NCBI GenBank assembly: GCA_050239825.1
Contig: JBFXGO010000004.1
Location: 4,590-68,589 of the forward strand
Length of the DNA stretch: 64,000 nucleotides
Direction: 5' to 3'
Origin: a bacterium
Lineage (GTDB): Bacteria > Hydrothermota > 32-111
The notes below the pieces were generated by a model, which made no database searches, was not told the DNA's origin, and worked only from the letters and a program-made list of their open reading frames with translations. The translations under genes were made by a program, and so were the position numbers. Shown here piece by piece: positions 24,328-54,875 of the stretch. Numbering within the stretch: the stretch's first letter is position 1; each line of letters starts with the position of its first letter.

Positions 24328-25973
24328 TATTTCTCCTTTTTAATAAATTCATTGTTTTTTATTTCAAAGACATCAAAATCCATCCTGTTTTTTCTGAAGG
24401 ATATTTTTCCTGAAGCTCCTTCATACGACTCCATTGAATTGAGATAGTTCTGAATTGACTTTCTGTCCGAATATCCATTCTTTATGAGCATTGCAAGAAG
24501 TTTGTATGTGTCATACGCTAATGCGGCGAATCTGTCCGGATCGGTGGAATATTTCCTGAAAAATTTAAGCCTGAAGCTGTTATAGGAATCAGATATGCCG
24601 CTTAATGATTGGGGGGCGACTATTATTGTATTTTTAAGGTAATCCTTCGCAAGTCGTATGAGATTCTCGTTATACATTGCGGAACCGCCCACCAGAAGAG
24701 CGCTTATGTCTTTGAATGCGAGCTGTGTGGAGAGAAGTATTGCATCCTCTGAGGATACGGGAAGGTAAATTGCATCAATTTTCATTTTTTCTATGAGTTC
24801 GATTTTATCAAGAAAATCCTGCGTTCCCGCAGGGTATCCTATTTCAAAAATCACATTGAGTCCCAGCCTCTTTGCCTCCTTCTTGAAAGCTCCCGAGAGC
24901 GTTTTCCCGTAGGAATCATCTGAAAAGAATATCCCGATGTTTTGAAGTGATGAATCCTGGCTCAGATAGTTCGCCGTGAATATCGCCTCTTCGACAAGAG
25001 TCTTATTCACAAGAAAAATGTTTGTATCAAAGCGCAGAATCTCGCCATCAGAGGCGGTCGGCGACAAGACCGGAAGATTTTTCTGTTTGTAAAGATAGGC
25101 TCCGGCAACGATTGTTTCCTGACTAGTCATCGGACCTATAACTGCCACGAATGTATTATCTGCATATATTGAATCAATAAGCTCCATTGTTCTGACAGAA
25201 CTTCCGTCAGTATCAAACATCACTAAGTCAATGCTCTCCTCCTCATTTCCGATAACGCACCCTCTCTTCACCTGTTCGCCTATATAGGCGTTTCCTCCTG
25301 TAAGTTGAAGGAGAAGCGCTATCTTGCATTTTGAGTTTTTATTGTTGTTTATCTCAAATATATATTTTTTTGTGTAATCATTTTCCGGATAGTCTTTTAT
25401 AAGCCTCTGCCTGAAAATATCGCTTTTTTGAACCTCTTCTGATTTTAAAGAGAGCTGATAGAGCCTGAAGAGAATTAATGGATTGAATATGTCAGAATTG
25501 TAATTGTACAGCAGATACTCCAATTCGGAAGAAGAAAGATGTTTTTCAATAACCTTGTTCAGGTTGTCAATCGCCTTTGTCCTTGTTTCGCTATCCTCAT
25601 CAGTAAACATGACTATCTGCATGAGCCAGCCAGCTGCTTCAAAATACGCCTTCTTTTTTATAAAAGTGTTTGATAGCTCGACTCTTATATTATGAGTCTG
25701 GTTGTCTTCGGGATAGAGTTCGGAGAGTTTCTCGGAATACGCGACCTTTTCATCAAATTCCTGCTGGGTGCAGGTCCTTATCAGAGTCAAAAGCGCTGTG
25801 TATGAATTTGAATCTTCGGGAAATTCTTCTACGAACCGGCTTAAAAGCTCTCTGCCTGCATTTATATCTTTCTTTTCCATCAAATTCATTCCGTCTTCAA
25901 AAAGCTGTTTTGAAGACTGACAGAAGAGCAATAGAGAAAAAAACGCAACAACGCTAAATATTTTCAATTTCAT
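24327..25973 (-). CDS. TPR N-domain + type-I periplasmic-binding-fold (LivK-like) protein, LpoA-like architecture
   Basis: 548 aa with a signal peptide and N-terminal TPR-like helices. The C-terminal half matches the Leu/Ile/Val-binding protein fold (KIALLLQLTGGNAYIGEQVKRG...VAVIGPMTSQE...). Confidence 0.5.
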   Translation of the reverse strand: MKLKIFSVVAFFSLLLFCQSSKQLFEDGMNLMEKKDINAGRELLSRFVEEFPEDSNSYTALLTLIRTCTQQEFDEKVAYSEKLSELYPEDNQTHNIRVELSNTFIKKKAYFEAAGWLMQIVMFTDEDSETRTKAIDNLNKVIEKHLSSSELEYLLYNYNSDIFNPLILFRLYQLSLKSEEVQKSDIFRQRLIKDYPENDYTKKYIFEINNNKNSKCKIALLLQLTGGNAYIGEQVKRGCVIGNEEESIDLVMFDTDGSSVRTMELIDSIYADNTFVAVIGPMTSQETIVAGAYLYKQKNLPVLSPTASDGEILRFDTNIFLVNKTLVEEAIFTANYLSQDSSLQNIGIFFSDDSYGKTLSGAFKKEAKRLGLNVIFEIGYPAGTQDFLDKIELIEKMKIDAIYLPVSSEDAILLSTQLAFKDISALLVGGSAMYNENLIRLAKDYLKNTIIVAPQSLSGISDSYNSFRLKFFRKYSTDPDRFAALAYDTYKLLAMLIKNGYSDRKSIQNYLNSMESYEGASGKISFRKNRMDFDVFEIKNNEFIKKEK

Positions 25974-26370
25974 AGGTAAACTTGACCTCCGCGCTCTGCT
26001 TAAGCATTGCTGAAACTGAGCAGTATTTTTCCTGGGAAAGATTTATCGCCTTCTTTACCTTATCTTCATCAAGGTTCACTCCCTTCAGATGATAATGAAG
26101 GGTTATGTTTGTGAATATTTTGGGATGTTCTCCGCGTCTTGTTCCGTCAACTGTTATTTTGAATTCCTTCAATTGCTCCCGCATCTTCACGAGAATAGAG
26201 ACAGTATCCATTGCGGTGCATCCCGCAAGTGAGAGAAGAAGCATCTCCATTGGCTTGAATGAACCTGCCTCCGCCTCAATTGTTTCAGAAGTGGTGTCAA
26301 ATATAAACTTGGATCCGCTGTCGGAGACAGCCGTAAACTTCATTCCCTCAACCCATTTAACTTCTGCCAT
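25954..26370 (-). CDS. OsmC/Ohr family peroxiredoxin-like protein
   Basis: 138 aa with the OsmC signature SLAGCTAMD and a second conserved Cys context. Confidence 0.8.
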   Translation of the reverse strand: MAEVKWVEGMKFTAVSDSGSKFIFDTTSETIEAEAGSFKPMEMLLLSLAGCTAMDTVSILVKMREQLKEFKITVDGTRRGEHPKIFTNITLHYHLKGVNLDEDKVKKAINLSQEKYCSVSAMLKQSAEVKFTYEIENI

Positions 26371-26851
26371 AATCTTCCTTCTCCTTGGTTATGTAAATGT
26401 TGTAATTGAACCTTTCTTCCGGCGAAGCATAGTCAATAATCAAAACTCCGTTTAGATGGTCAAGTTCGTGTTGAAACGCCCGTGCATGAATTCCCTCGAG
26501 ATGCATCGCCTGATATGCACCTGAAGAATCCGTAAATTCAACATCAACCTCTTTCGACCTTTCAACAGGCACATTCAAATTTGGAAATGAGAGACAGCCT
26601 TCAAACTGAGATTCGGTCTCTTTCGATTTGAATTTCAATTCAGGATTTATAAGCACTGTCGGCCTCTCTCCGATGTCGAGCACCATAATTCTTTGTGTAA
26701 TGCCCACCTGATTTGCCGCAAGACCTACTCCATCTTCAAGCTTCATTCCGTTTATCATCTGCTTTATGATGTTCTTGAGTGATTTGTTATTCTTAGCCAC
26801 CTCGTCGGATTTTATCCTCAGAACAGGGTCTGGATACCTTCTGATTTTCAT
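26357..26851 (-). CDS. def: Peptide deformylase
   Basis: 164 aa with motifs GVGLAANQVG, EGCLSFP and HELDHLNG. Confidence 0.9.
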   Translation of the reverse strand: MKIRRYPDPVLRIKSDEVAKNNKSLKNIIKQMINGMKLEDGVGLAANQVGITQRIMVLDIGERPTVLINPELKFKSKETESQFEGCLSFPNLNVPVERSKEVDVEFTDSSGAYQAMHLEGIHARAFQHELDHLNGVLIIDYASPEERFNYNIYITKEKEDYGRS

Positions 26852-26852
26852 T

Positions 26853-28592
26853 TCATTTCTCCGTTTTCAGATGCAATTCCTTAAGCTGTTTATCAGAGAC
26901 AAAATCGGGTGATTCCTCCATCAGCCCCAATCCGTTAAGCGTCTTTGGAAAAGCAATTACATCCTTTATATTATCTCTTTTGAGCATTAGAGAGACCAAT
27001 CTGTCTATTCCGGGAGCAATTCCACCGTGAGGCGGAGCTCCGTATTTAAATGCTTCAAGCAAAAATCCGAACCTGCTCTGAAGTTCTTCATCTGTCATTC
27101 CAACTATCTTCATAATCTCTTTTTGAATTTTCGGATCATGTATCCTTATTGAACCGGAGGCAAGCTCGACGCCGTTTAACACAAGGTCATACAAATCGCC
27201 CCTTGCTTTCAGAGGCTCTGTTGACATAGTGCTTAAGTGTTCTTTTTTGGGCATTGTGAACATATGGTGGCAGGCGACATACCTCTGCTCATTCTCATCA
27301 TACTCAAAGAGGGGAAATTCCACAACCCACACAAAATTAAATTCATCCTTTGTATCGAATTTCTTGATTGAAGCTATCTTGCGTCTAAGCATTCCGAGAT
27401 ATTCAAGGGTTCTCTTCTTTTTTCCGCTCATTGCGAAAAGTATCTTTTCATTGTTCAAAATCTCCTTAGGCAGATACTTCGATAGCGGCCCGGAAACTCC
27501 AGTCTCCGACAATTTCATGTATCCGAGTCCGGTAGCTCCGATTGATTTAACAAACTCAGTGAGTTCGTCAATCTCTTTTCTCGTGAAATCCTGGTCGGAG
27601 AGGATAGCGCCTGTAAACTCTTGCTCTCTGAACACCTGAAATTCACTACTGTGGGCGCTCTCTGTTATATCATTTATTTCAAGTTTGTATCTGAGGTCAG
27701 GTTTATCTGACCCGTACTTTTCCATAGATTCATCATAGGTCATTCTTCTGAAAGGTATTTTAAGCTCTATGCCGAGAGTCTCTTTAAAAATATGCGCCAT
27801 CATCTCTTCAATCACCTGAAGCACATCATCGCTGGACACGAATGACATCTCCATATCCAACTGCGTGAATTCAGGCTGTCTGTCTGCCCTCTGGTCTTCG
27901 TCCCTGAAACATCTCGCTATCTGGAAATACCTGTCAAAACCGGACACCATGAGAATCTGCTTGTATAACTGCGGAGACTGCACAAGAGAATAAAATTTTC
28001 CCGCATGCATCCTCGAAGGCACAAGATAGTCTCTTGCTCCTTCAGGCGTTGATTTTGACATAACCGGGGTCTCTATCTCTATGAAACCGCAGTCTGTGAG
28101 AAAATCCCGTATCGATTTGATAACTTTGGAACGCATTATTAGAGCTGAAGTCATATATTTTCTTCTCAGGTCGAGATACCTGTATTTCAGCCTGAGCTCC
28201 TCTGACGCCTTCACATCCTCTTCTATGACAAATGGCGTGACAGCAGACCTTGATATTACTTCTGTGAAGTGACATTCGACCTCCACCTCTCCGGTTTTCA
28301 TATCTTTGTTTACTACATTTTCCGGTCTGCGTTTTACAATGCCTTTTACTCTAATCACATCTTCGCTTCTCAGAGATTTCATTGTTTCGGAGGAATCTTC
28401 ATTATCGGGGAAGAGCTGCACTATTCCGGAGCGGTCCCTAAGATCGATGAATATGAGATTTCCATGGTCTCTCTTTCTGTTGACCCAACCGCAGAGAGTT
28501 ACTTCACTTCCTTCAAGCCCTGCATCCACTTCTCCGCAAAGGCATGTTCGCATTGCTGTTTTAAGCATCTTTACACCTCTTGATGTATTCAT
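26853..28592 (-). CDS. aspS: Aspartyl-tRNA synthetase
   Basis: 579 aa. An N-terminal OB anticodon-binding domain precedes the class II core (FRDEDQRADRQPEFTQLD, GGIAPGIDR). Confidence 0.9.
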   Translation of the reverse strand: MNTSRGVKMLKTAMRTCLCGEVDAGLEGSEVTLCGWVNRKRDHGNLIFIDLRDRSGIVQLFPDNEDSSETMKSLRSEDVIRVKGIVKRRPENVVNKDMKTGEVEVECHFTEVISRSAVTPFVIEEDVKASEELRLKYRYLDLRRKYMTSALIMRSKVIKSIRDFLTDCGFIEIETPVMSKSTPEGARDYLVPSRMHAGKFYSLVQSPQLYKQILMVSGFDRYFQIARCFRDEDQRADRQPEFTQLDMEMSFVSSDDVLQVIEEMMAHIFKETLGIELKIPFRRMTYDESMEKYGSDKPDLRYKLEINDITESAHSSEFQVFREQEFTGAILSDQDFTRKEIDELTEFVKSIGATGLGYMKLSETGVSGPLSKYLPKEILNNEKILFAMSGKKKRTLEYLGMLRRKIASIKKFDTKDEFNFVWVVEFPLFEYDENEQRYVACHHMFTMPKKEHLSTMSTEPLKARGDLYDLVLNGVELASGSIRIHDPKIQKEIMKIVGMTDEELQSRFGFLLEAFKYGAPPHGGIAPGIDRLVSLMLKRDNIKDVIAFPKTLNGLGLMEESPDFVSDKQLKELHLKTEK

Positions 28593-29838
28593 ATATTTTT
28601 GCCGAATTCAAATCAATTTTTATCTGACTCTGGTCTGATAGATTCTTAATCACCGCCTTATTCTCCCTCATCTCCTCTTCTCCAATTATCACGGCGAATT
28701 TTGCCCTGCCGGATGAGACGGAAAGCTGTCTTTTTATTTTATCCGTTTCAAAAAGCATATCTGCTTTCATTGACATGCGTCTCAGAGACTCCATCACCTC
28801 AAAAGCTTTGTCCGCAGTCTCGCCTCCGAAATGAACTATGAATGCATCGATAATTTCATCTGCTTCAAAATTCTTTTTTATACTTTCAGGTATCGAAAGC
28901 ATAAGCCTTTCAATACCGCCTGCAAAACCGCATGAAGGCATCTCCTGACCGCCCAGTTCTTTGGAAAGCATGTCATACCTTCCGCCTCCGATAAGAGTGG
29001 ACTGAGACCCGAGGGATTCTCCAGTTTCAATAAATTCAAAGACAGTCTTGGTATAATAATCGAGCCCGCGCACTATCATGGGATTTACCGAATACTCTAT
29101 TTTGAAATCATCAAGGCACTGTTTTACATTCTCGAAATCGCTTTTGCATTCTTTGCACAGATGTTCAGTAATTTTCGGGGAATCGAGAGCAACCGCCCTG
29201 CATCCGCTCTCTTTGCAGTCAAGCACCCTCAGAGGATTTGTATTTATTCTCACCCTGCATTGTTCGCAGACATCCGCAGACCTTTCCGAAAAATATTTTT
29301 TTAAAAGAAGAGTGTAGCCGGGTCTGCAATTCCCGCATCCTATTGAGTTAATCTCTATTTTGTAATCCTTTATTTCAAATGCTTTCAATATTTCCTTACC
29401 GAGCATTATAAGTTCGCAGTCGCGCCTGAAATCGGATGAGTTTAGAGTCTCCACTCCGTATTGATAAAACTCCCTGTACCTTCCCTTCTGGGGTCTTTCA
29501 TATCTGAACAGAGGTGTTATGTAGTATAGTTTTTTGACTTCCGCGCCCTGAACATAATTGCTCTCTAGCACCGATCTCATCATTGGCGCAGTCTCTTCGG
29601 GTTTGAGAACATACTCTTTGCCACTCTTCGATGTGATTGTGAACATCTCTTTGTTGACAATGTCTGTCTCATTTCCGACAGCCCTTTTGAACATCTCCAA
29701 AGGCTGAAGTATGGATGTCTGTCCGTAAGAAAATCCGTAAGAGGAGATGACCTGCCTCAGAGTCTCAACCGTATTTCTGAAAAGGTTGGATTGACTGCCA
29801 AGCATATCGTAAGTGCCCTTTACTCTCTCAAACCGCAT
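28561..29838 (-). CDS. hisS: Histidyl-tRNA synthetase
   Basis: 425 aa with class IIa motifs and a C-terminal anticodon-binding domain. The HisS N-terminus is MRFERVKGTYDML. Confidence 0.9.
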   Translation of the reverse strand: MRFERVKGTYDMLGSQSNLFRNTVETLRQVISSYGFSYGQTSILQPLEMFKRAVGNETDIVNKEMFTITSKSGKEYVLKPEETAPMMRSVLESNYVQGAEVKKLYYITPLFRYERPQKGRYREFYQYGVETLNSSDFRRDCELIMLGKEILKAFEIKDYKIEINSIGCGNCRPGYTLLLKKYFSERSADVCEQCRVRINTNPLRVLDCKESGCRAVALDSPKITEHLCKECKSDFENVKQCLDDFKIEYSVNPMIVRGLDYYTKTVFEFIETGESLGSQSTLIGGGRYDMLSKELGGQEMPSCGFAGGIERLMLSIPESIKKNFEADEIIDAFIVHFGGETADKAFEVMESLRRMSMKADMLFETDKIKRQLSVSSGRAKFAVIIGEEEMRENKAVIKNLSDQSQIKIDLNSAKIYEYIKRCKDA

Positions 29839-30343
29839 TTCGCCTCCCCAATTTTAGTTCATATAAAATTAAAAACATCGTCATCAGAGCCATTCCGAAA
29901 CCGTCGGCGAGGAGATCGAAGAATGAGCAGAATCTTGTAGGTGTTAATATCTGATGAAGCTCATCGAAGATTCCTATCAGAATAACAATCATTCCGGCAA
30001 GAATATAGTTCTCCTTGGAATCTCTTTTGCCTCTTGTCTTTTTCAGAGCGTAATAAACCAAAAAAGTAAAGACAAAGTATTCAAACACATGGTAGATTCT
30101 GTCCAGATTTTCAGAAACAAAAACGCAGAGCGAACAACCTCCGCCTCTTCTGTTCAGAAAACTCTTTATCATCAGAAGCACTCTCGACACTATGTTGATG
30201 TTGTCTCCCTTGAAATCAACTTTTACGGAACCCATCACAAAAATTACGACCATCCAAAGAAGTGCCGGAAGCCAATAGATGATTTTTTTTGCCTTAGAGC
30301 TCAATTTCATGCAATCCTTTTGCCAACTGTTTTCCGGCTTCAT
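29828..30343 (-). CDS. VanZ-like membrane protein
   Basis: 171 aa with 4 TM segments and the conserved DELHQ motif. Confidence 0.55.
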   Translation of the reverse strand: MKPENSWQKDCMKLSSKAKKIIYWLPALLWMVVIFVMGSVKVDFKGDNINIVSRVLLMIKSFLNRRGGGCSLCVFVSENLDRIYHVFEYFVFTFLVYYALKKTRGKRDSKENYILAGMIVILIGIFDELHQILTPTRFCSFFDLLADGFGMALMTMFLILYELKLGRRNAV

Positions 30344-30743
30344 CCTCTGTCGTCGAAGAGAGAAGTCTCTGCTTGAACTGTTTGGAAGCGAGAGCCCTGT
30401 ATAGACTTGAAAGGAGGGAGAGATAATCGGATTTCATTTCTTTTGAATAGAGGATAAGAAATATTATTCTTATATTTTCATCTCCCATGGAAAATGACTC
30501 TTTAAGAAGACCGGCGCACAGACACAGGGTTTTTCTTGATGTTTCAGCCCTCGGTACAATAACTTCGTCTGTATAGTATGTGCTGAACATTTTTTCCCTT
30601 GCAGTTATGCTTTTTTCTATTTCTGCGGACTCTTGCTGAGAGTATCCGCGCTTTTCAAGCATCTCTGCAAGAGAAGCAGTCAAATCCGTCGCGGAAAGGA
30701 ATGAGACAGACACAATTGAACTGTAATCCTTCGAATATTGCAT
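30294..30743 (-). CDS. PTS EIIA-Ntr (PtsN)-like domain protein with active-site His replaced by Arg
   Basis: 149 aa. It aligns to PtsN around ITAREKMFSTYY...VIVPRAET, where the canonical sequence is IAIPHGK, and the downstream LLL-type motif is IIFLILYS. Confidence 0.5.
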   Translation of the reverse strand: MQYSKDYSSIVSVSFLSATDLTASLAEMLEKRGYSQQESAEIEKSITAREKMFSTYYTDEVIVPRAETSRKTLCLCAGLLKESFSMGDENIRIIFLILYSKEMKSDYLSLLSSLYRALASKQFKQRLLSSTTEDEAGKQLAKGLHEIEL

Positions 30744-30777
30744 TTTTAATCTGCCTTTTTTGCATCGTTTGTCAGAT

Positions 30778-33240
30778 TCATCTGTTCTCCATATACTGTT
30801 TAAGCATATTGTCCCTCAATTCGAGATTTAGAGAGAGAAAGACCTTTGATGCGCTTTGAAGAAGTAATGATTTCAACTCCTTGTTTTTTCTGTAAATATA
30901 AGTCATATATGCCAATAACTCCGCTTTATACAGCATCTCCTCATTCTTTTCGATTCCAAGAAGCTCATGGGCAAAATCCCTGACTTTGCTCTGTTCCGGC
31001 TCCTTGTTGGCTCTTATAAAATCAAGAACCATTAAATCAAGATTATTGATTATATCATCTTTATTAAAATAATCAAGTTTCAACCACTTAGTGGAGTTTT
31101 TCGCCATTTTAATCTTCCTGTTTTGAAGTACGGCAAAATCGGGAACCGACCTCTTGTCCCTGTAAAAATCAAGAACAAGCTTGTTGTAATATTCGGCATT
31201 ATCCCATTCATACATTCTTATGAAGGCATCTGAAAGATTGTTATAGACAACCATCCTGTAAAAATCATTATCCTTCTCCCTCTCCATCGATAGGAGAGAT
31301 GTGAACATATCAAGAGATTTTGAAAATTCCCCCAGTTTTAGATGTGTGACTGCGAGATTGAGATTGATGCTCCACACTATTGAATTCATACTTGTGAATG
31401 GGAAGATGTCCATAGCTTTGTTGAAGTATTCAAGGGCTTTGAAGAGCTGGTCCTTCTGGTCAAACATATTTCCCATCATCATGTATACCTTTCCAAGGTC
31501 GGCCAAAAAGAGTTCTTTCGCGCATATCTCCTCGCATTTCAAAAAACAATCGACGGCTTCCTTCTCTCTCTGCCTGAACATGTAGTAGTTTGCCAGATTG
31601 GACAGATGCGACACATACTCCTTTTGAGTGAGAACCGTCTGGTCAATATTTTTTACAAACTCCTCAACCATCTCAAATAACTGTTTTCTAATACAGTAAC
31701 TTGTATAGAGTATGTTTGTGTAGGGGTCATCCAGTTTTTCAAGGTCAAGTTCTCCTGCAGTTGAAACAGTCTTCAGAACTTTTGTCTGAGCGCTTATCAC
31801 TGGGTCAGTTATCTTTGCAATCTCCTTTTCCGCAAGCTCGAAATTGGATTCAGCTATCAGTATTCTGGCCTTCAATGAGTGCAGTTCATCACCATCCTCT
31901 CCGGCATTTTTGAGAATTTCCATGGCTTCTTCCATATCTCCGTAATTGTACATGTCGAGAGATGCGGATAATGAGAGCTGTCTGTCTTTGCTCAAAGAGC
32001 ATATTCTCTTTTTTCTTGCAAGTTCAAACATCTTCTTTTGGCATGGCGAATATTTTTTATCATCAGAGAGTGAAAAGAAAATAGGCGGGTAGGAGTAGGT
32101 CAGACAAGAATCTCTTTCAATGAGAATCCCCAAAGAGAGAAGATGCATGACATCTTTGTATAGAGAGGGATTGTCTGCAACCGCAGACATGGATATTTCG
32201 AGTCCGAGTCTGTTCACCCGTTGGAGTGCTTTAACCGTAGAATCGCTTAGAGCAGAGATCTCCTCCTTTGCCGAAAAATCAGTAAGGGTCTCAAATTTGG
32301 CCATTGCCTCCTTTTTGACCGCCATTGAAACCAAAAACGGATTACCCTTGGTTGTCAGCTCCAGATAGTTCAGTGTGAAGAGATTAGCTTTCCTTCCGGC
32401 AAGTTCAAGAAATCTCACAATGTCGTTCTTTGAAAGATTCGACAATGTGTATTCATCGTGCTCTCTCTGTTTGAAAAAGTAAAGGAATTTGTTAAGTTTT
32501 TTATTCCCTTCAATGGTGGCGGGATTGTAAAAAAGTACTGTGACAGAGAATGCGTCATCCTCCCTGAAATTGTCAAGCTCAAGGAATTTTATTCTCTGAA
32601 ATTCACTCTGCAGTTTGTTGAGAAGAGATGTCTTCCCAGATTTAAATCCGCCCTTTATTATCACAGACCTCTCTCCGGCAAGCGACTTCTTTATCTCTCT
32701 CTCCTCCTTGAAAGGCATGTATATTCCGCCGCTCTCTCTCTTTGTATAGAGAGTGGAGCAGTTTTTGCCCCTCTCTTTTGAACAGTACAGAGCAAAATCG
32801 GCATTCTGCATTATGTTTTCAATCTCCTCTATTCCGCCCTCGGCTATTCCGAAGGAGAGTGTCACTGCAACCGACTTATTGACTATAATGAAAGGCCTGG
32901 AAGAAATATACTTTCTAAAATTCTCCATTGCCTCCTTCAATTCAGCGGCGCTTTTGTCAGAGGAGATGAATATAAATTCATCGCCTCCGAATCTTAGCGG
33001 ATAGTCATGTTTTTTGCTGTAGCTTTTGAGAAGACTGCCTATTTCCGTTATTATCTTGTCGCCTGTATAGTGACCGTGCACATCATTTATGTACTTAAAA
33101 TTGTCAATGTCAAAAAAGGCAAGAGAGATTGGCCCGTCAAGTATTGCCTGAGCGTTGAGCATAAATCTTTTGTTGAGTATTCCGGTAAGTTCGTCATAAT
33201 AGACAGGCTCAAATTCCATCCACTGTTTTTCCTGTCCCAT
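30778..33240 (-). CDS. GGDEF (diguanylate cyclase-like) domain fused to P-loop NTPase and TPR-like C-terminal region
   Basis: 820 aa. The N-terminal 170 aa is a GGDEF domain with an intact RFGGDEF and DIDNFKYINDVHGH. Walker A IIKGGFKSGKTSLL follows, then about 450 aa of helical TPR-like repeats. Confidence 0.7.
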   Translation of the reverse strand: MGQEKQWMEFEPVYYDELTGILNKRFMLNAQAILDGPISLAFFDIDNFKYINDVHGHYTGDKIITEIGSLLKSYSKKHDYPLRFGGDEFIFISSDKSAAELKEAMENFRKYISSRPFIIVNKSVAVTLSFGIAEGGIEEIENIMQNADFALYCSKERGKNCSTLYTKRESGGIYMPFKEEREIKKSLAGERSVIIKGGFKSGKTSLLNKLQSEFQRIKFLELDNFREDDAFSVTVLFYNPATIEGNKKLNKFLYFFKQREHDEYTLSNLSKNDIVRFLELAGRKANLFTLNYLELTTKGNPFLVSMAVKKEAMAKFETLTDFSAKEEISALSDSTVKALQRVNRLGLEISMSAVADNPSLYKDVMHLLSLGILIERDSCLTYSYPPIFFSLSDDKKYSPCQKKMFELARKKRICSLSKDRQLSLSASLDMYNYGDMEEAMEILKNAGEDGDELHSLKARILIAESNFELAEKEIAKITDPVISAQTKVLKTVSTAGELDLEKLDDPYTNILYTSYCIRKQLFEMVEEFVKNIDQTVLTQKEYVSHLSNLANYYMFRQREKEAVDCFLKCEEICAKELFLADLGKVYMMMGNMFDQKDQLFKALEYFNKAMDIFPFTSMNSIVWSINLNLAVTHLKLGEFSKSLDMFTSLLSMEREKDNDFYRMVVYNNLSDAFIRMYEWDNAEYYNKLVLDFYRDKRSVPDFAVLQNRKIKMAKNSTKWLKLDYFNKDDIINNLDLMVLDFIRANKEPEQSKVRDFAHELLGIEKNEEMLYKAELLAYMTYIYRKNKELKSLLLQSASKVFLSLNLELRDNMLKQYMENR

Positions 33241-33296
33241 AAAAACATTATAGAGGGTATAGGCAAAAAATCAATATACTCTTTCAGAAGGCGGCG

Positions 33297-33599: not shown

Positions 33600-35276
33600 T
33601 TATTTTATCTGGTTAAGATAAAAGAAAAGTGCGTTTTTTGATGAGAAAATATCATCTGCTCTAAGAGAGACATTGCCGGTGGATGAGTAAAATTCCAGAG
33701 AGAGAAGGTCTCCCTTCTTCAGAGAAAGCACTCCCGCGCAGTTGAGGGTAGAGTATCCTTCAAAATTTTCCTGCAGAGTCACAACCGAATTGAGTTTTTC
33801 CTCCTCTTTTTTGTTTTTAACAAGACGCAATGCCGCTTTGCATGAGGAATCAGGCGTTCCGATTTTCTTTACGGATGCCGTGTATCCTGCATAGTAAATG
33901 CCGTCATAATTGACGGTAATCACTCCTGTCTTTTTATCCCAAGAAAAGAGTGAGTCTCCTCTGAATGTCTTTCTTTCAGAAAATACAATTGATGTGAATT
34001 TGCCGTTTGAAAAAACATCCGAAGCTGTCCATTCGGCCGCTCCGGCAAAAGTGCTGATGCTACCCATCATAGAGAGAGTGTCCGGCTTCATTGACTTCCT
34101 CACTATGATGGAATTGGCGCTGTCTTCAAAAATCGAAAAATCGCTTATTTTATCTCCATCCGCAATTCCCCATCTGACAGGAGAGTTTGTACCTATATTG
34201 TACTTCATAAGAAGCGGAGACCCGGGAAAATTGAGGAATGATTTCATGAAGATATTCCCCTCTCCCATGATGTCATTCTTTGACATTGACAGCCGCCCTC
34301 CGCTGAACTGAATTGAATCTCCGTTCTTCTCCCTTATAAATAGAGCGCCGTCTTTTGATATTTTTGCGTAACCCTCTCCTTCGACAGTCAAATCCCCTTC
34401 AATGCGCCATGGAGTAGTTATTCCGCTGTTTTTCGCACTGCCTGAAAAATATATGGAATCTGTTTTGGTGCGCGTCTTGAAATCACCAGCGAGAACCGTC
34501 TCGTCAGCTCTGAGAACCGAAACAGCCCTACCGTTCATAATGCTTATCTGATTCTGAACATTCAGGTATCCCGTGATATGAAGGTATCTGATGAATGTAA
34601 AGTTATCCGCAAAGTACAATTCCCTTTTCTGTTCATTGCCGTAAATGATGAGCGTGTCTCCCCTCTTATTGTAGCAATTGGATATTATGCCGTAAAAATT
34701 CTTGCCCACTCCCTTTCCCTGCGTCCAAACAAGATATCCTGTTGAAGGCCAGTTGAAATCCTCCGTAATCTCTGAAGCAAATATATCGGAGAATGCGACA
34801 TCCTTTGTCGATCTCATGCTCTCTATCATATTGTGAAAGAAACCCATGTATGCCATGTATCCGGTGTTTTCGAGCGACTTGAACGAGAGATTTTGCAGGG
34901 TAAGATAAATACTGTCGGCTTTGTTTATAAAGACTGTGTTTGAAAGGCTTGCATTGCAGGCGCTGTTGACTCCGCAAATGGAAATAAACCTGAACGGAGT
35001 ATCTATGTATACGGATTCTGCTTCAAGATTTCCGTAAATCAAAATGCTGATTGTGTCCAGCTTATTCTTTCTGCAATGGTCAAGAACCTGATTTATAGAT
35101 GAAAACTCGGCTCCCTGATAAGAGACATTGAATGATTTATAGTATCTGAAATCAATGCTGTCTTTAAGAAGTTCATAAAATTTCGGCATGTATGACTGCA
35201 GGTCCGGCTGAAACGATTGTGAAAACAAGAACAGCGAAACGACTGTTAAAATAATTACTAAAGCGCTTTTTTTCAT
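33600..35276 (-). CDS. Secreted hypothetical protein
   Basis: 558 aa with a signal peptide, a beta-rich composition and no recognisable catalytic motif. Confidence 0.45.
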   Translation of the reverse strand: MKKSALVIILTVVSLFLFSQSFQPDLQSYMPKFYELLKDSIDFRYYKSFNVSYQGAEFSSINQVLDHCRKNKLDTISILIYGNLEAESVYIDTPFRFISICGVNSACNASLSNTVFINKADSIYLTLQNLSFKSLENTGYMAYMGFFHNMIESMRSTKDVAFSDIFASEITEDFNWPSTGYLVWTQGKGVGKNFYGIISNCYNKRGDTLIIYGNEQKRELYFADNFTFIRYLHITGYLNVQNQISIMNGRAVSVLRADETVLAGDFKTRTKTDSIYFSGSAKNSGITTPWRIEGDLTVEGEGYAKISKDGALFIREKNGDSIQFSGGRLSMSKNDIMGEGNIFMKSFLNFPGSPLLMKYNIGTNSPVRWGIADGDKISDFSIFEDSANSIIVRKSMKPDTLSMMGSISTFAGAAEWTASDVFSNGKFTSIVFSERKTFRGDSLFSWDKKTGVITVNYDGIYYAGYTASVKKIGTPDSSCKAALRLVKNKKEEEKLNSVVTLQENFEGYSTLNCAGVLSLKKGDLLSLEFYSSTGNVSLRADDIFSSKNALFFYLNQIK

Positions 35277-49532: not shown

Positions 49533-49567
49533 ATAAGAGAGGCGCATTAAGCGCCTCTCTTATTTTG
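49533..49567. terminator. Bidirectional rho-independent terminator between convergent genes
   Basis: agagaggcgc-attaa-gcgcctctct is a perfect 10-bp stem with A/T runs on both sides. Confidence 0.6.
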
Positions 49568-50840
49568 CAAGCTCATTCAGCCGCTTCACTGCACAAAAAT
49601 CACCGCACATGGTGCATTCTTTATTTTCTCCTATCTCAGACTCCGATCTGTATCTTGCCGCTTTTAATGGGTCGATTGAATTAATTATCTGTTTGTCCCA
49701 CTCAAGGTTTCTTCTTGCATCTGTCATCTTTCTGTTTTTTCTCAAAGCATACGGCCTCTCTCTTGCAAGGTCTGCGGAGAATGCCGCTATCAGAGACGCA
49801 ACAACTCCCTCCTTTACATCTGCCGGTGTCGGCAGTCGAAGATGCTCCGATGGAGTCACATAGCACAAAAAATCAGCTCCATTATAGGCGGCAATTGCTC
49901 CTCCTATGGCTCCTGCTATGTGGTCGTACCCTGCCGAAATGTCATTGACAAGAGGCCCGAGAACATAAAATGGAACATTGTGGCAGATCCTCTTCATAAG
50001 CTTCACATTCATTTCAATTTGATTCAAAGGAACATGACCCGGACCCTCAACCATAACCTGCACACCTTTGTCTAGAGCCATCTGCGTGAGTTCGCCGAGC
50101 ACTATAAGCTCCTCTATCTGTGCCCTGTCCGAGGCATCAGCGCATGCCCCGGGTCTCATTCCGTCTCCCAATGATATTGTCACATCATACTCGTGTAGTA
50201 TGTCAAGTATTTTATCAAAATGCTCAAAGAGAGGAGATTCTTTACAGTTGTGCTTCATCCAAGCAATTAGAAATGAACCTCCCCTTGATACTACATTCAT
50301 TATTCTTTTTTCATTGAACATCCTGTTCATAGTTGCGATATTAACTCCGGAGTGTATTGTCATGAAATCAACGCCGCTCTTTGCCTGCTCCTCAACCGTC
50401 TTAAGATAGTCGTCTATAGTCATGTCGACAATGTCCTTCTTTTCGTTAGAGAGGTTAAATCCCGTCTCATAGATCGGAACTGTGCCGACCATGACATCGG
50501 ATTCCTCAAGAACTCTCTTCCTTATTATCTTGATTTTACTGCCCAAAGAGAGGTCCATAACGGAGTGCGCTCCGGCATCAATTGCTGTTTTTAGTTTCAA
50601 AATCTCTTCATCAATGTCAATATGATACGGAGAGGAGCCGATATTTGCATTTACTTTTACAGAGAGGCCTTCTCCGATTCCATATATGAATTTTTTCTTT
50701 CTTTTGCTGTTGTTGGGAATAGCTATAATTCCTCTCTTCATTCCTTCAAGTATGAAATTCTCTGACACATTTTCAAAATTCGCCACCTCTTTCATCTCTT
50801 CCGTTATGATATTTTTCAGTGCTTTATCTCTCAGTGTCAT
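49560..50840 (-). CDS. thiC: Phosphomethylpyrimidine synthase
   Basis: 426 aa. The radical-SAM-like C-terminal cluster motif CTMCGDFC is present, and the core is conserved. Confidence 0.9.
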   Translation of the reverse strand: MTLRDKALKNIITEEMKEVANFENVSENFILEGMKRGIIAIPNNSKRKKKFIYGIGEGLSVKVNANIGSSPYHIDIDEEILKLKTAIDAGAHSVMDLSLGSKIKIIRKRVLEESDVMVGTVPIYETGFNLSNEKKDIVDMTIDDYLKTVEEQAKSGVDFMTIHSGVNIATMNRMFNEKRIMNVVSRGGSFLIAWMKHNCKESPLFEHFDKILDILHEYDVTISLGDGMRPGACADASDRAQIEELIVLGELTQMALDKGVQVMVEGPGHVPLNQIEMNVKLMKRICHNVPFYVLGPLVNDISAGYDHIAGAIGGAIAAYNGADFLCYVTPSEHLRLPTPADVKEGVVASLIAAFSADLARERPYALRKNRKMTDARRNLEWDKQIINSIDPLKAARYRSESEIGENKECTMCGDFCAVKRLNELAK

Positions 50841-51876
50841 TTTTTCTCCTTAATATTGATTGTATTTTTTTGATTTCCCTCTCCGGCGAGCCGCTCTCTG
50901 TTATGTAGGAGAGAATTGCGGCATTCATAAAACCTATCTTTAAAACTGCTTTCAGATTGTGCTCTTTTATTCCGCCTATGCATACTGCGGGTACCGAAGA
51001 TTCTTTCAGCATTTTTTCAGCTTCGGAGAGTCCAAGCACCCTGTCTTTTAGAATCTTTGAGTCAGTCGGGAATACGGGTCCTATGCCCACATAATCCGGC
51101 ATCTCTTTCAACGCGCATTTAAGTTGTTTCATATTATGAGTTGATTTTCCTATTATAAGGCCACTCGATTCCCTCCTCGCCGCAAAAACAGGTATGTCGG
51201 TCTGTCCAAGATGCACACCGTCGGCATCTGACAGCAAAGCTATGTCAAGTCTGTCATTAACAATAAAGAGAGTGTCGGAGTTCTTCGTGATTGAGCGTAT
51301 TGCTCTTGCTTTTTTCAGAAGCTCCCTGCCTTCCATAAATTTGTCGCGGAACTGTATGACTCTTATACCATTCTTGACCGCTATTTCGGAGAGTTTTTCG
51401 TATCCGACCTTTGGATTTGTCATGATTATGTAGAGACCCATTTTATCTGCAAACCTTTTTCTTTTCATTGAAATAAAGAGATTTCTTTCAATATCATAGA
51501 GAGAGTATCTCATCTCTTTGAAATTTCCTGTTTTCGAGCCTTCCAATTTTGAAAATTCTTCAAGCGACCTGCATGCCTCCTGGGCTCTGCCGAATGCGCT
51601 TCCAAGGATATCGTCGATTGATGTTCTCTTGTTCATATCAAATGACTGCTCTCGGCCTAAATCCTTTTCACTCTCTCTGAAAGGAAGAGCATACTTTTCA
51701 TAACTTTTCCTGTAATTATCAAACTGAGACCTGAGAAATTTAATTTTCTTTGTTTGTTTTTCATCACTAATATGAAATCTGCATATATCCTCAATCATTC
51801 TCAATGCCTCTGACAGCCGGTTGATATTTACATCAATTATTCTTGGGGACGGTGCTTGTATTTTTGTATTTTTCAT
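50824..51876 (-). CDS. thiE: Thiamine-phosphate synthase (ThiE) with ~140-aa N-terminal extension
   Basis: 350 aa. The C-terminal 210 aa is the ThiE TIM barrel (GLYIIMT..., VIQFRDK, GVHLGQTD, IGGI). The N-terminal 140 aa has no assigned domain. Confidence 0.8.
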   Translation of the reverse strand: MKNTKIQAPSPRIIDVNINRLSEALRMIEDICRFHISDEKQTKKIKFLRSQFDNYRKSYEKYALPFRESEKDLGREQSFDMNKRTSIDDILGSAFGRAQEACRSLEEFSKLEGSKTGNFKEMRYSLYDIERNLFISMKRKRFADKMGLYIIMTNPKVGYEKLSEIAVKNGIRVIQFRDKFMEGRELLKKARAIRSITKNSDTLFIVNDRLDIALLSDADGVHLGQTDIPVFAARRESSGLIIGKSTHNMKQLKCALKEMPDYVGIGPVFPTDSKILKDRVLGLSEAEKMLKESSVPAVCIGGIKEHNLKAVLKIGFMNAAILSYITESGSPEREIKKIQSILRRKNDTER

Positions 51877-51877
51877 A

Positions 51878-52669
51878 CTATCCCCTTCTTATACTCTCCT
51901 TTAAAAGTCCGTATGCTTTCTGCCCTGAAAGAAGCATTCCGCCAAATATAGGACCCATCCTGAATCCTCCGCACACTCCATTTGCGGCCATGCCTGAAAC
52001 AAAGAAATTTTTGTAAATTTCTTTTGTGTTTTCGACTGTCTGTTTCTCTCCTACTTCCGCATTCATCGGCTTCTCTCCTTCAAATTCTCCTGACGGGGTG
52101 TTAAGCCTGACTCCTGCCTTTTTAACCAGAGTATTCGCAAGCTCCGCGGGATGCCCTGTTGAATCCATCACAGTTTTTGAATAGACGGTTATAGGGTCGA
52201 CATGAAGCCCCATATGCTCAACCGGAGTCCAATTTATCACAATTCCGCACACTGAATCATTCTTAAAGACAGTGTCAACAACTTTTACAAGATTGAAGAG
52301 CTTCGCTCCTGAATTCACGGCAGAGTTTATAAGCGCGGAAGTGCACTCAACAGAATCGCATGTAAAGTAATCATCGTTATGCTCCTTCACTCTCACATTG
52401 AACATTTTGAGAACATTTAGAGCCTCTCTCTGCACTACTATTTCATTGAACATCATTCCGCCGCCCCACATGCCGCCTCCGGGAGCAAGTTTCGATTCAT
52501 AGACCGCAACATTAAATCCGTCTTTCGCCAAAAGAGCTGCCGCCACAAGACCTGACGGACCTGCGCCTACTATTGCGGCATCAAGATGCAATGAATCTTT
52601 CAGCTTCTTAAAGTAAGAGTCTATTATCAGTTCGCTCACCTTTGTGTCATCAAGCATTTTAACCTCCAT
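51878..52669 (-). CDS. thi4: Thi4-family thiazole synthase (archaeal/eukaryotic type)
   Basis: 263 aa with FAD/NAD-binding AIVGAGPSGLVAAALLAK and the conserved GMWGGGMMF motif of Thi4. Confidence 0.85.
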   Translation of the reverse strand: MEVKMLDDTKVSELIIDSYFKKLKDSLHLDAAIVGAGPSGLVAAALLAKDGFNVAVYESKLAPGGGMWGGGMMFNEIVVQREALNVLKMFNVRVKEHNDDYFTCDSVECTSALINSAVNSGAKLFNLVKVVDTVFKNDSVCGIVINWTPVEHMGLHVDPITVYSKTVMDSTGHPAELANTLVKKAGVRLNTPSGEFEGEKPMNAEVGEKQTVENTKEIYKNFFVSGMAANGVCGGFRMGPIFGGMLLSGQKAYGLLKESIRRG

Positions 52670-52699
52670 TAAGAATAAAAAAAATCAGGGGAACCTGAT

Positions 52700-52795
52700 T
52701 TTGTAATTTTCCTACGGCAGAATTACCTGCATCAGGTTCAAGGGTCAGCGGAAAAGACCGCTTTCTCAGCCACTTTTAGTAGCTCCCCAAATAGA
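52700..52795 (-). promoter_or_regulatory. TPP (thiamine pyrophosphate) riboswitch controlling thi4-thiE-thiC
   Basis: The minus-strand sequence reads GGGGAGC...GGCUGAGA...GACCCUUGAACCUGAUGCAGGUAAUUCUGCCGUAGGAA. This matches the THI-box consensus CUGAGA...ACCCUUUGAACCUGAUCUGGAUAAUGCCAGCGUAGGGAA. It is followed by the hairpin aaatcaggggaacctgattt before the RBS and start. Confidence 0.85.
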
Positions 52796-52839
52796 TTAAA
52801 CACCATATCAAACATAAAGTCAAGACCCGCATCTTAAAA

Positions 52840-54116
52840 ACGCAATCTGACAGGTAATTCAGTTACGAGTTTCGGGTTGCGGGTTACGAGTTTAAATACA
52901 ATAGGACAGATGATTAAATGACTTGTCTTTACATTTCCGAGGAAAAATTCCAGTACAGCCAGCAAAACAGCCGTGAGCCGTGTGCCATGTGCCTTGAGCT
53001 TAATACGGGGAGTTGAGTAAGATTTTGCCTTTACATTTCCGAATGAGAAGCCTGTCCACAGCGCTCGTCTTTTCAATGCTTCTCATGAGGACAATCAATT
53101 AAATAACTTATTGATACACGAAAGCTACAAGTCGGCGAGGACGCTTCGCGCAGACGCCCATCAAGTGGTTCTCTCCTCGCTCCGCTAACCCATCTTGATA
53201 TAGCGGCGAAGCGGAGTGTGCGAGCCGACGCTATGCCCGCGTGCAGCCAGCAAAACAGCCCTGAGCCGTGTGCCATGTGCCATGAGCTTAATACGGGGAG
53301 TTGAGTAAGATTTTGCCTTTACATTTCCGAATGAGAAGCCTGTCCACAGCGCTCGTCTTTTCAATGCTTCTCATGAGGACAATCAATTAGATAACTTATT
53401 GATACACGAAAGCTACAAGTCGGCGAGGACGCTTCGCGCAGACGCCCATCAAGTGGTTCTCTCCTTGCTCCGCTAACCCATCTTGATATAGCGGCGAAGC
53501 GGAGTGTGCGAGCCGACGCTATGCCCGCGTGCAGCCCCAGTTCAATCTTCAATTATCAATCAACAATAAAATGATAGACCCTTCACGATAGTCATAACCA
53601 CAGAGGCGTTCAGGGTGACACGGTTGAGTAAGATTTTGTCTTTACAATAATCTTCACAAAGTTCTGGTGCAACCCGAGGCGTCTATCATGTGCGTTCGCG
53701 CACATTACACCCTCGCCAATGTGGGGACATTCCTTCGGTGTGTCCCCACTGCAACATTCAATTAATTAACTTATTGATACACGAAAGCTACAAGTCGGCG
53801 AGGACGCTCCGCGAAGACGCCCATCAAGTGGTTCTCTCCTTGCTCCGCTAACCCATCTTGATATAGCGGCGAAGCGGAGTGTGCGAGCCGACGCTATGCC
53901 CGCGTGCAGCCCCAGTTCAATCTTCAATTATCAATCAACAATAAAATGATAGACCCTTCACGATAGTCATAACCATAGAGGCGTTCAGGGTGACACGGTT
54001 GAGTCATAACCATAGAGGCGTTCAGGGTGACACTATTGAGTCATAACCACAGAGGCGTTCAGGGTGACACGGTTGAGTAAGATTTTGTCTTTACAGACTG
54101 GTGTTCAAGCTGACGC
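52840..54116. repeat. Repeat-dense GC-rich non-coding region: nested direct repeats and hairpins
   Basis: A 288-bp unit at 52955-53247 recurs nearly identically at 53243-53535. A third copy of its 142-bp sub-unit lies at 53769-53910. The 37-mer tcataaccayagaggcgttcagggtgacacggttgag occurs once at 53591-53627 and as three tandem copies at 53966-54076. The motif ttgagtaagattttgyctttaca recurs five times. The module ttcagttacgagtttcgggttgcgggttacgagtttaaatacaat lies at 52858-52905. Confidence 0.85.
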
Positions 54117-54869
54117 TTACTCTTCTAACAACCTCAAAATTCCGTTTATAACTGTCAAAGGGTGCACAGGACAACCGGGTATGTATAAATCAATTTTATG
54201 ATTTTTCATAAATTCTCTATTCAATGCATCTGACCCTGAAAAGATTCCACCGCTAATTGCGCATGCTCCTGCCAGTATGATGATTTTAGGTTCAGGCACT
54301 GCTTTGTATGTCTCCTCAAGCGCCTCTGCCATATTCTCACTCACCGGTCCCGTTATTATTATGCCGTCTGCATGGCGCGGGCTTGCCACAATATCCACTC
54401 CGAATCTTCCCATATCAAAATTGACATTTGAACACGCATTAAGTTCCATCTCACATCCATTGCATCCTCCGGCTGAGACTGAGCGAAGTTTCAATGATTT
54501 TTTGAAGATTTTTTTTATGTCGGCTCTTGTTTTAATGGCGTCTCTGAACCTAATCTTATATTCAGTATTTGCCGTCACTATAAGCTTCTCCCTCGAATCG
54601 CATGAAATTCTGTGCTCATCAGTAAATTTCACAATATTCTCCCCGAGCTTTCTTTCGCACTTCCCGCAGAAAGTGCATTTGCCGAGGTCTATCGAGAATG
54701 GCGCATTTAAAATTGCATCGGCAGGGCAGAGACCCTCTATTTCGCTTTTGATTAGATTCTCTTTCTTAATTTCAGGGAATCCCCTGAACATCTCATTGAC
54801 TTTTGCATTTTTAACATCAGGTATAAACTGACGCCCCTGTCTTAATGATATTTTTATGTTTTCAAACAT
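54117..54869 (-). CDS. Complex-I/hydrogenase small-subunit homologue (NuoB/HyfI-like) with N-terminal degenerate ferredoxin segment
   Basis: 250 aa. Proximal [4Fe-4S] ligand motifs GGCNGCEMEL, GACAISGG and PGCPVHP. The N-terminus (CP...CTFCGKC) is a half-degenerate 4Fe-4S ferredoxin motif. Confidence 0.8.
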   Translation of the reverse strand: MFENIKISLRQGRQFIPDVKNAKVNEMFRGFPEIKKENLIKSEIEGLCPADAILNAPFSIDLGKCTFCGKCERKLGENIVKFTDEHRISCDSREKLIVTANTEYKIRFRDAIKTRADIKKIFKKSLKLRSVSAGGCNGCEMELNACSNVNFDMGRFGVDIVASPRHADGIIITGPVSENMAEALEETYKAVPEPKIIILAGACAISGGIFSGSDALNREFMKNHKIDLYIPGCPVHPLTVINGILRLLEE

Positions 54870-54875
54870 AGCACC

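Follow-up and report, generated by a model that had tools for sequence, protein, structure and literature searches.

A 64,000-nucleotide stretch of contig JBFXGO010000004.1 (hereafter, the window) encodes on its minus strand, at positions 30778–33240, an 820-residue protein in which a GGDEF domain is followed by a degenerate nucleotide-binding oligomerization domain (NOD) of the STAND type and a TPR sensor region, as judged from the open reading frame, Pfam and NCBIfam matches and structure models. Our analysis suggests that this predicted cytoplasmic protein is, with reasonable probability, a soluble, ligand-gated diguanylate cyclase that is activated by oligomerization on the STAND plan. A preliminary description of the region, drawn from the nucleotide letters and their translations, had reported an 820-residue protein combining an intact RFGGDEF motif, a Walker A sequence and a TPR-like array; each of these elements was recovered in the open reading frame, although 820 residues are too few for the label 'giant' that it had attached to the protein.

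An intact GGDEF domain at the N-terminus

The catalytic GGDEF domain occupies residues 14–165 of the cyclase (positions 32746–33201, minus strand). Residues 14–160 match both Pfam GGDEF (E 1.1e-28) and TIGR00254 (E 4.3e-31), with scores well beyond the family cut-offs (100.4 bits versus 23.8 for PF00990, and 107.9 versus 37.4 for TIGR00254). The active-site motif is intact (R83-F-G-G-D-E-F89), and alignment to PleD (1w25) and DosC places PleD residues D327, N335, D344 and K442 on cyclase residues D44, N52, D61 and K155. The catalytic residues are all invariant across the 10 lineages compared and the GGDEF is the best conserved of the domains of the cyclase; from these intact residues we infer that it is catalytically competent. 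An inhibitory RxxD I-site is common in diguanylate cyclases, albeit not a defining feature of them; here the corresponding segment reads K76-K-H-D79 (KxxD), and within the family the RxxD version is found in P0002 and P0003 only and is absent from the deep lineages.

The GGDEF domain is thus without a conserved I-site, and no other regulatory domain accompanies it. Inspection of the translated sequence revealed no signal peptide, transmembrane segment or N-terminal stalk ahead of it. Since the domain begins at approximately residue 14, with neither a stalk nor a sensor preceding it, it has to be controlled from the C-terminal part of the protein.

A compact STAND module with an altered Walker B motif

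The region that follows the cyclase domain (residues 190–395, positions 32056–32673, minus strand) corresponds to a compact STAND nucleotide-binding oligomerization module, which can be divided into a nucleotide-binding domain (NBD, residues 190–268), a helical domain (residues 269–330) and a winged helix (residues 331–395). The sequence GGFKSGKTS at residues 197–205 satisfies the Walker A consensus GxxxxGK[ST], and its P-loop (G197-GFKSGK-T204, positions 32629–32652, minus strand) contains three residues, G197, G202 and K203, that do not vary in any of the 10 lineages. These belong to a larger set of invariant positions, completed by P240, E263, N291, G299, N300 and G346, that stands out in a family whose members are only 25–30% identical overall.

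An AlphaFold2 model of residues 172–432, built from ten family sequences (pLDDT 86.6, pTM 0.83), consists of three parts, a small alpha/beta P-loop domain, a helical bundle and a winged helix, which is the tripartite organization characteristic of STAND proteins; its structural neighbors include Avs3, Avs4 and Avs5 together with plant and animal NLRs. Two short motifs are in agreement with this fold. The first, G299-N300-P301 (positions 32338–32346, minus strand), is the 'GxP' motif of the STAND helical domain and is embedded in the family sequence TTKGNPFLV, with G299 and N300 invariant, while the second, an 'LxxLsxxE' element located after strand beta-4, reads L-S-N-L-S-K-N-D. Both this element and the T-K-G299-N-P301 segment align with their equivalents in canonical proteins that carry a GGDEF domain and an AAA_16 domain: the family motifs 'EYTLSNLSKNDIVRFLE' and 'TTKGNPFLV' have as counterparts 'LRLEIDKMTVEETRNMI' and 'QSGGNPLFLREL' in one such protein (P0011), the patterns 'LSNLSxxxIVRFLE' and 'GNP[FL]' are common to both groups, and the GGNPLF of the canonical proteins aligns with the GNP motif. 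In addition, when the family profile was compared with an alignment of ten canonical GGDEF-AAA_16 NODs using hhalign, 129 columns spanning the helical and winged-helix domains were matched with an E-value of 1.9e-5 and a probability of 78%. The assignment to the STAND class is based on this comparison and on the structure model.

Several observations weigh against this assignment. No Pfam STAND model (AAA_16, NB-ARC, NACHT or nSTAND) scored above its cut-off, the best being nSTAND3 with 13.9 bits versus the required 27.2 and over the P-loop only; similarly, searches of the middle region that used sequence alone, whether against Pfam (nSTAND3, AAA_14, VirB11 and similar families), against PDB profiles or with hhalign against single canonical proteins, recognized just the P-loop. 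The NBD is also unusually small, with only four modeled strands (residues 192–196, 218–221, 234–238 and 261–265) and approximately 35 residues between the Walker A and Walker B positions versus some 115 in P0011, and the alignments behind the structure models were shallow (6 and 10 sequences). Finally, the Walker A residue at position 204 is Thr or Ser in 8 of the 10 lineages, Asn in P0006 and His in P0125, and the GKN and GKH versions of these two lineages indicate that some members may no longer bind nucleotide. Taken as a whole, the modeled fold and the profile match nevertheless establish that the middle region derives from a STAND NOD and that the protein follows the effector-NOD-repeats order.

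Whether the module works as an NTPase is a separate matter. The Walker B position, which the models place at the end of strand beta-3, is occupied by N239-P240 (positions 32521–32526, minus strand; VLFY-N239-P240), that is, by an Asn instead of the usual Asp. This Asn is present in 9 of the 10 lineages, with an Asp appearing only in P0124, and the adjacent P240 is invariant. As the P-loop Lys has been kept and the Walker B acid is gone, the nucleotide is probably a cofactor or a conformational latch rather than the substrate of a hydrolysis cycle. The simplest reading of these motifs is that the NOD still binds something at its P-loop without hydrolyzing it, and a working hydrolase appears unlikely. 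Hence the STAND-like layout put forward in the preliminary description is upheld by the domain order, the hhalign match and the NBD, helical and winged-helix model, which places the Walker B position at N239, whereas the notion of an active NTPase is not.

The remainder of the protein (residues 396–820, positions 30781–32055, minus strand) is a TPR-like alpha-solenoid that represents the candidate sensor. Several TPR families match residues 430–700, TPR_12 with an E-value of 2.6e-11, and the region resembles domain III of MalT, the sensor of PH0952 and the RRNPP peptide sensors. The NOD is therefore flanked as in the STAND plan, with the GGDEF domain on its N-terminal side and the TPR solenoid on its C-terminal side.

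Relatives of the cyclase

An exhaustive profile search of 1.84e9 representative proteins with the middle region (residues 165–425) retrieved only 6 clusters at 50% identity (P0001, P0006 and P0122–P0125), all of them formed by proteins of approximately 800 residues with identical architecture. A profile search of genome contigs with the family alignment, keyed on generic GGDEF peptide patterns, returned 80 unrelated diguanylate cyclases and no member of the family. The host lineage is, judging from its proteins, candidate division WOR-3: the RpoD encoded in the window falls in a cluster of at least 90% identity with a WOR-3 RpoD, and both P0122 and the HslV encoded with it are named WOR-3.

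The layout had seemed to be without precedent, yet the same homology search uncovered canonical GGDEF-AAA_16 proteins of 1050–1430 residues in metagenomic lineages, with AAA_16 matches above the cut-off. Their repeats are either of the TPR_MalT type, as in P0011 (MCK5117342.1, from Candidatus Aegiribacteria), P0022 and P0090, or of the HEAT type, as in P0013, P0017, P0024, P0038, P0043, P0063 and P0101, and these proteins are annotated merely as 'diguanylate cyclase'. Like the window protein, they have an N-terminal GGDEF domain starting at about residue 10, a P-loop near residue 200, a helical domain with a GNP[LF] motif, a winged helix and a repeat sensor. In contrast, they possess a normal Walker B (LDN or IDD) and some 115 residues between the two Walker motifs, whereas the window family is about 800 residues long, lacks this insert, has Asn in the Walker B position and stays below threshold for all Pfam STAND models. 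The neighborhood of P0011 is likewise unrelated, with neither hslV nor an EIIA gene. On these comparisons, the window family is a compact, motif-degenerate offshoot of the GGDEF-STAND-repeat design that is both rare and restricted to one phylum. Literature searches on GGDEF combined with STAND or AAA_16 domains, and on cyclic di-GMP (c-di-GMP) in WOR-3, returned no published account of the architecture or of the cyclase-EIIA pairing.

The best-characterized analogues of the window cyclase are the mycobacterial proteins Rv0386, Rv1358 and Rv2488c, in which a class III adenylyl cyclase is joined to a STAND ATPase, TPRs and a LuxR domain (bioRxiv 10.1101/2024.03.06.583649). As in the window protein, a nucleotide cyclase that depends on dimerization stands at the N-terminus and is joined to a STAND ATPase of the MalT type with TPRs, and a common fold for GGDEF and class III cyclases has been noted (Pei and Grishin 2001, as cited in PMC7159879). 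The mycobacterial proteins differ in their product (cAMP or cGMP), in having a C-terminal helix-turn-helix output and a canonical ATPase, and in belonging to an unrelated lineage. The closest known systems otherwise include MalT, the archetypal bacterial STAND protein with a TPR-like sensor, and the STAND-TPR protein PH0952 that is grouped with it; unlike the window protein, whose effector is an N-terminal enzyme, MalT has a C-terminal LuxR helix-turn-helix effector and intact ATPase motifs.

A proposed mechanism of activation

Diguanylate cyclase activity requires dimerization of GGDEF domains, as illustrated by PleD and WspR, and STAND proteins, among them MalT, Apaf-1, the NLRs and Avs, signal through ligand-induced oligomerization of their NOD. 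Combining both principles, binding of a ligand or partner to the TPR solenoid would release the NOD, which would then self-associate and bring two or more GGDEF domains together. This association would in turn switch on the synthesis of c-di-GMP from GTP, because the production of one c-di-GMP molecule needs two GTP-loaded GGDEF domains to meet. In such a scheme the nucleotide held by the NOD would act as a bound latch or cofactor and not as an ATPase timer. We infer both the activation by oligomerization and the binding of nucleotide without hydrolysis from the domain order and the state of the motifs, and consider that this mechanism has a better than even chance of being correct.

A histidine-less EIIA-like protein downstream of the cyclase

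The gene that follows the cyclase (positions 30294–30743, minus strand) encodes a 149-residue protein with the PTS_EIIA_2 fold, here termed EIIA*, which is non-phosphorylatable. It starts 34 nt after the cyclase stop codon on the same strand, in accordance with the preliminary description, and no terminator-like hairpin is predicted in this 34-nt gap. The protein matches PF00359 (PTS_EIIA_2; E 1.6e-14) with 54.6 bits versus a cut-off of 27, over profile positions 15–141 of 144. HMMER alignments to IIA-Mtl (1a3a) and PtsN (1a6j and 2a0j) place the phospho-accepting His of the 'aVPHg/aIPHg' motif (His73 of PtsN, His65 of IIA-Mtl) on Arg65 of 'VIVPRAE', whose codon is AGG (positions 30549–30551, minus strand), so that the proposed exchange of His for Arg is confirmed at both the protein and the DNA level. 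The second active-site His (His120 of PtsN) is replaced by Tyr107 (positions 30423–30425, minus strand), a Tyr that is invariant in all EIIA* sequences. A sequencing error at the first His codon was considered and ruled out, given that the equivalent residue in nine distinct and independent orthologues is Arg (6), Lys (2) or Ser (1) and never His. The loss of phosphorylatability is thus ancient and fixed, in agreement with the pseudo-EIIA presumed in the preliminary description.

As in PtsN and the EIIA-Mtl/Fru proteins, the Arg of the 'RE' or 'RE(K)' motif (Arg49) is mostly kept across the orthologues. Unlike them, EIIA* has lost both active-site His residues and has hslU and vanZ as neighbors. 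It also falls below the equivalog cut-offs of TIGR01419 (33.7 bits versus 138.7), PRK10896 (15.6 versus 221) and TIGR00848 (34.0 versus 103.5), and because the models for PtsN and FruA give it nearly the same score (33.7 and 34.0 bits), the earlier designation 'PtsN-type' is no better justified than 'Fru/Mtl-type'. No gene of a phosphotransferase system (PTS; EI, HPr, HprK, EIIB/C, ptsP or ptsO) and no rpoN was found in the 64-kb window, and rpoN, hpf, ptsO, EI-Ntr and NPr genes were absent from both the window and the related loci; EIIA* lies between vanZ and either hslU or the cyclase, with no EIIB or EIIC as would be expected for a sugar PTS of the Mtl/Fru kind. Searched as a single sequence, EIIA* had no match other than itself, and a profile made from six orthologues collected only 7 clusters in 5.8e9 proteins, all of which lie in the same genomic context.

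With both active-site His residues permanently lost, EIIA* can act only by binding something. EIIA-Ntr is known to work through the binding of partner proteins such as GlmS and SsrB (PMC5024086, PMC6456747). On its 3' side, the EIIA* gene is overlapped by a gene for a VanZ-like membrane protein (positions 29828–30343, minus strand; Pfam VanZ, NF037970). As called, with a start at 30343, this open reading frame overlaps EIIA* by 50 nt; an in-frame ATG (Met12) at 30310 reduces the overlap to 17 nt, nearer to the 4–17 nt found in most orthologous loci, and is for this reason the likely true start.

Gene order across lineages and candidate partners

In the window, vanZ is followed by hisS (28561–29838), aspS (26853–28592), def (26357–26851) and osmC (25954–26370), all identified as open reading frames with Pfam matches on the minus strand, and the order hisS-aspS-def-osmC is repeated in L003, L006, L089, L093 and L094. 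The arrangement of the genes between the cyclase and vanZ depends on the lineage. In the clade of the window (L001–L005, 62–73% identity) EIIA* comes directly after the cyclase, with an overlap of 4 nt in L001 and L002 and a separation of 78 nt in L003–L005. In the deeper lineages, on the other hand, hslV directly follows the cyclase with an overlap of 1–4 nt (L006, L087/L088, L089, L090, L091/L092 and L093), and in L094, where the cyclase gene is cut by the start of the contig, hslV begins 1 nt past the cyclase stop. Where these contigs continue (L006, L089, L093, L094 and L095), the order is hslV-hslU-EIIA*-vanZ-hisS-aspS-def-osmC-lppC, so that approximately 1.9 kb of hslV and hslU intervene between cyclase and EIIA*; in the same five loci the hslU stop is overlapped by 4 nt by the EIIA* start. 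The vanZ gene overlaps or abuts EIIA* in all 10 loci with a gene called directly after EIIA*, and in L096 about 480 nt separate EIIA* from the next gene call. A tblastn search detected neither hslV nor hslU in the 64-kb window, and the adjacency of cyclase and EIIA* in its clade results from the absence of hslVU at that position.

The tightest conserved junctions are consequently cyclase-hslV, hslU-EIIA* and EIIA*-vanZ, and the most striking feature of the string is the translational coupling of the cyclase to hslV, whose GGAGG ribosome-binding site is embedded in the conserved Met-Glu-Glu codons at the end of the cyclase gene. The upstream flanks of the cyclase vary by lineage (polA, guaB or a gene for a 558-residue protein), so that the conserved block begins, on its left, with the cyclase. 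On the downstream side, the gene order shared with the window runs over at least 12 genes and reaches an lppC-like gene, a 690-residue TPR protein, a DUF4388 protein and a solute-binding protein. Cyclase and EIIA* are in this way long-term members of one co-directional string that is specific to WOR-3. Unrelated housekeeping genes are part of this string too, and a shared location is thus in itself no proof of a functional partnership.

Of the possible partnerships within the string, the one that follows these junctions would couple the cyclase to HslV(U), and EIIA* to VanZ and/or HslU, such that the cyclase links c-di-GMP to HslVU proteolysis or the load of unfolded proteins and EIIA* serves as a cytoplasmic regulatory subunit of the VanZ-like protein. 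This possibility is supported by the position of hslV inside or directly after the cyclase stop in all five deep lineages as well as L093 and L094, the placement of its ribosome-binding site, the location of the cyclase at the edge of the block and the overlaps that join EIIA* to hslU and vanZ. However, the window clade retains cyclase and EIIA* without hslVU at the locus, L087 and L088 carry hslV with neither hslU nor EIIA*, translational coupling reports co-expression and not interaction, and we know of no link between c-di-GMP and HslVU. We accordingly regard such partnerships as tentative and, on balance, not likely.

A somewhat more doubtful idea is the one raised in the preliminary description, namely that the GGDEF-STAND protein and the dead EIIA form a dedicated signaling pair, with EIIA* docking on the TPR or NOD to control synthesis or else receiving the c-di-GMP signal. 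The survey of orthologous neighborhoods bears this out insofar as the two genes do co-occur: both families are equally narrow and confined to WOR-3 (6 versus 7 clusters), they share strand and tight string in every locus long enough to hold both, with one exception, and in L001 and L002 the two genes share 4 nt of coding sequence. Moreover, the His-site residue is basic in 8 of the 9 EIIA* orthologues and lies beside the conserved Arg49, forming a pocket into which a phosphate-carrying ligand could fit. Yet the immediate adjacency is derived and limited to a single clade, with hslV and hslU standing between the genes in the deeper lineages; L087 and L088 combine the cyclase with hslV, followed by a kinase with HisKA and HATPase domains and a response regulator of the sigma-54 type instead of hslU, and contain no EIIA* within 8 kb; the synteny with hisS, aspS and def could reflect inherited rather than functional linkage; and P0011, a canonical protein of the GGDEF-AAA_16-TPR type, is not accompanied by an EIIA gene.

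A different objection concerns the module itself: the NOD could be an evolutionary relic without a switching role, in which case the cyclase would be constitutive or merely scaffolded by its TPRs and the P-loop retained for structure. The replacement of the Walker B Asp by Asn, the disappearance of the Walker A Ser/Thr in two lineages, the much shortened NBD, an identity of only 24–28% between the NODs of deep lineages and the sub-threshold scores of the Pfam STAND models are all compatible with decay. By contrast, the set of invariant residues at such low overall identity and the confidently predicted tripartite fold speak for a constrained module, and a preserved P-loop Lys and GNP motif would be unexpected in a relic, which makes this explanation improbable.

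Even less probable, and best viewed as speculation, is a scheme in which dgc-hslV-hslU-EIIA*-vanZ operate as one module, the TPR array of the cyclase sensing a proteostasis or envelope cue and EIIA*, through its former phosphoryl pocket, now formed by Arg/Lys65 and Arg49, acting as a new c-di-GMP or nucleotide receptor that signals to HslU and/or the VanZ-like protein; if true, it would mean that a PTS EIIA fold has been repurposed as a second-messenger receptor and would connect c-di-GMP to HslVU proteolysis. A role as an anti-phage or conflict system, in which an Avs/NLR-like STAND sensor would have its GGDEF domain produce a cyclic dinucleotide alarm, was rejected as very improbable, for although the model resembles Avs proteins and NLRs and GGDEF domains do, if rarely, generate the signal in conflict systems that depend on NTPs (PMC7159879), PADLOC gave nothing more specific than a generic TPR match, the GC content is unremarkable, the string is a vertically inherited housekeeping one (dnaG, rpoD, uppP, hisS, aspS and def) whose gene order is stable across deep lineages, and the locus is free of genes for nucleases, pore-forming proteins or other effectors and of signs of mobile elements.

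Other features of the locus and the window

Some further observations concern genes adjacent to the cyclase in the window or its relatives. A sigma-70-like sequence (10/12 matches; TTGATT and TATAAT separated by 16 nt) at window positions 33247–33274 on the minus strand stops just 7 nt ahead of the cyclase start codon (ATG at 33240), so that a transcript initiated from it would be almost leaderless; chance may account for the hit, as the scan returned 29 sites versus 19.5 expected, barely more than in shuffled sequence. The 558-residue protein encoded upstream (33600–35276, minus strand) shows only a weak C-terminal match to C1q/BclA_C-like domains (E ~0.01). In L001 and L002 its gene is kept beside a PGA_cap gene immediately ahead of the cyclase, an arrangement missing from the deeper lineages. 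In L087 (3211–6447) and L088 (2668–5904), hslV appears to be orphaned beside the cyclase, with no hslU next to it. Canonical HslV exposes a catalytic N-terminal Thr. The WOR-3 HslV proteins (L006, 2519–3049; L087, 3211–3750; L089, 7406–7936; L090, 2416–2946; L091, 10391–10930) begin with M-x-(x)-(I)-R/N-S-T-T-I-(L/F)-G-V, and the 3–5 residues that precede the Thr-Thr suggest that the proteins carry a short propeptide or that translation begins at another codon.

Elsewhere in the window, a thiamine pyrophosphate riboswitch (70.7 bits; 52692–52799, minus strand) lies upstream of an operon comprising thi4, thiD2/thiE and thiC (49560–52669, minus strand). Between this operon and a hydrogenase/complex-I-like cluster is a non-coding, GC-richer repeat region (52950–54100). 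It contains two copies of a 288-nt unit that are 98% identical (52953–53528) and a third copy at 62% (53616–53903), and a 37-nt unit, AGTCATAACCAYAGAGGCGTTCAGGGTGACACGGTTG, is present in approximately 3 copies at 53965–54078 with one more at 53590; the region has no match in Rfam and its layout is not CRISPR-like. The cluster itself (54117–61300, minus strand) contains genes for Oxidored_q6, a fused 30-kDa/49-kDa complex-I-like protein, Proton_antipo_M and NADHdh, and looks similar to a group 4 [NiFe]-hydrogenase of the membrane-bound kind or to an Mrp-type module.

Implications

The practical value of these findings is limited, as the family is tiny and its hosts are uncultivated members of WOR-3. 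Should the proposed mechanism prove true, the window protein would represent a minimal natural case of STAND-style induced oligomerization driving a second-messenger synthase, with a NOD that apparently works without hydrolysis, and would bear on how much of an NTPase cycle a STAND switch needs. EIIA*, in turn, illustrates how the PTS_EIIA_2 fold can persist as a pure binding module outside any recognizable PTS. The deep and tight linkage of cyclase and hslV offers a concrete starting point from which a link of c-di-GMP with ATP-dependent proteolysis could be tested, and for a phylum known only from metagenomes, the cyclase would provide a cytoplasmic, ligand-gated route to c-di-GMP.

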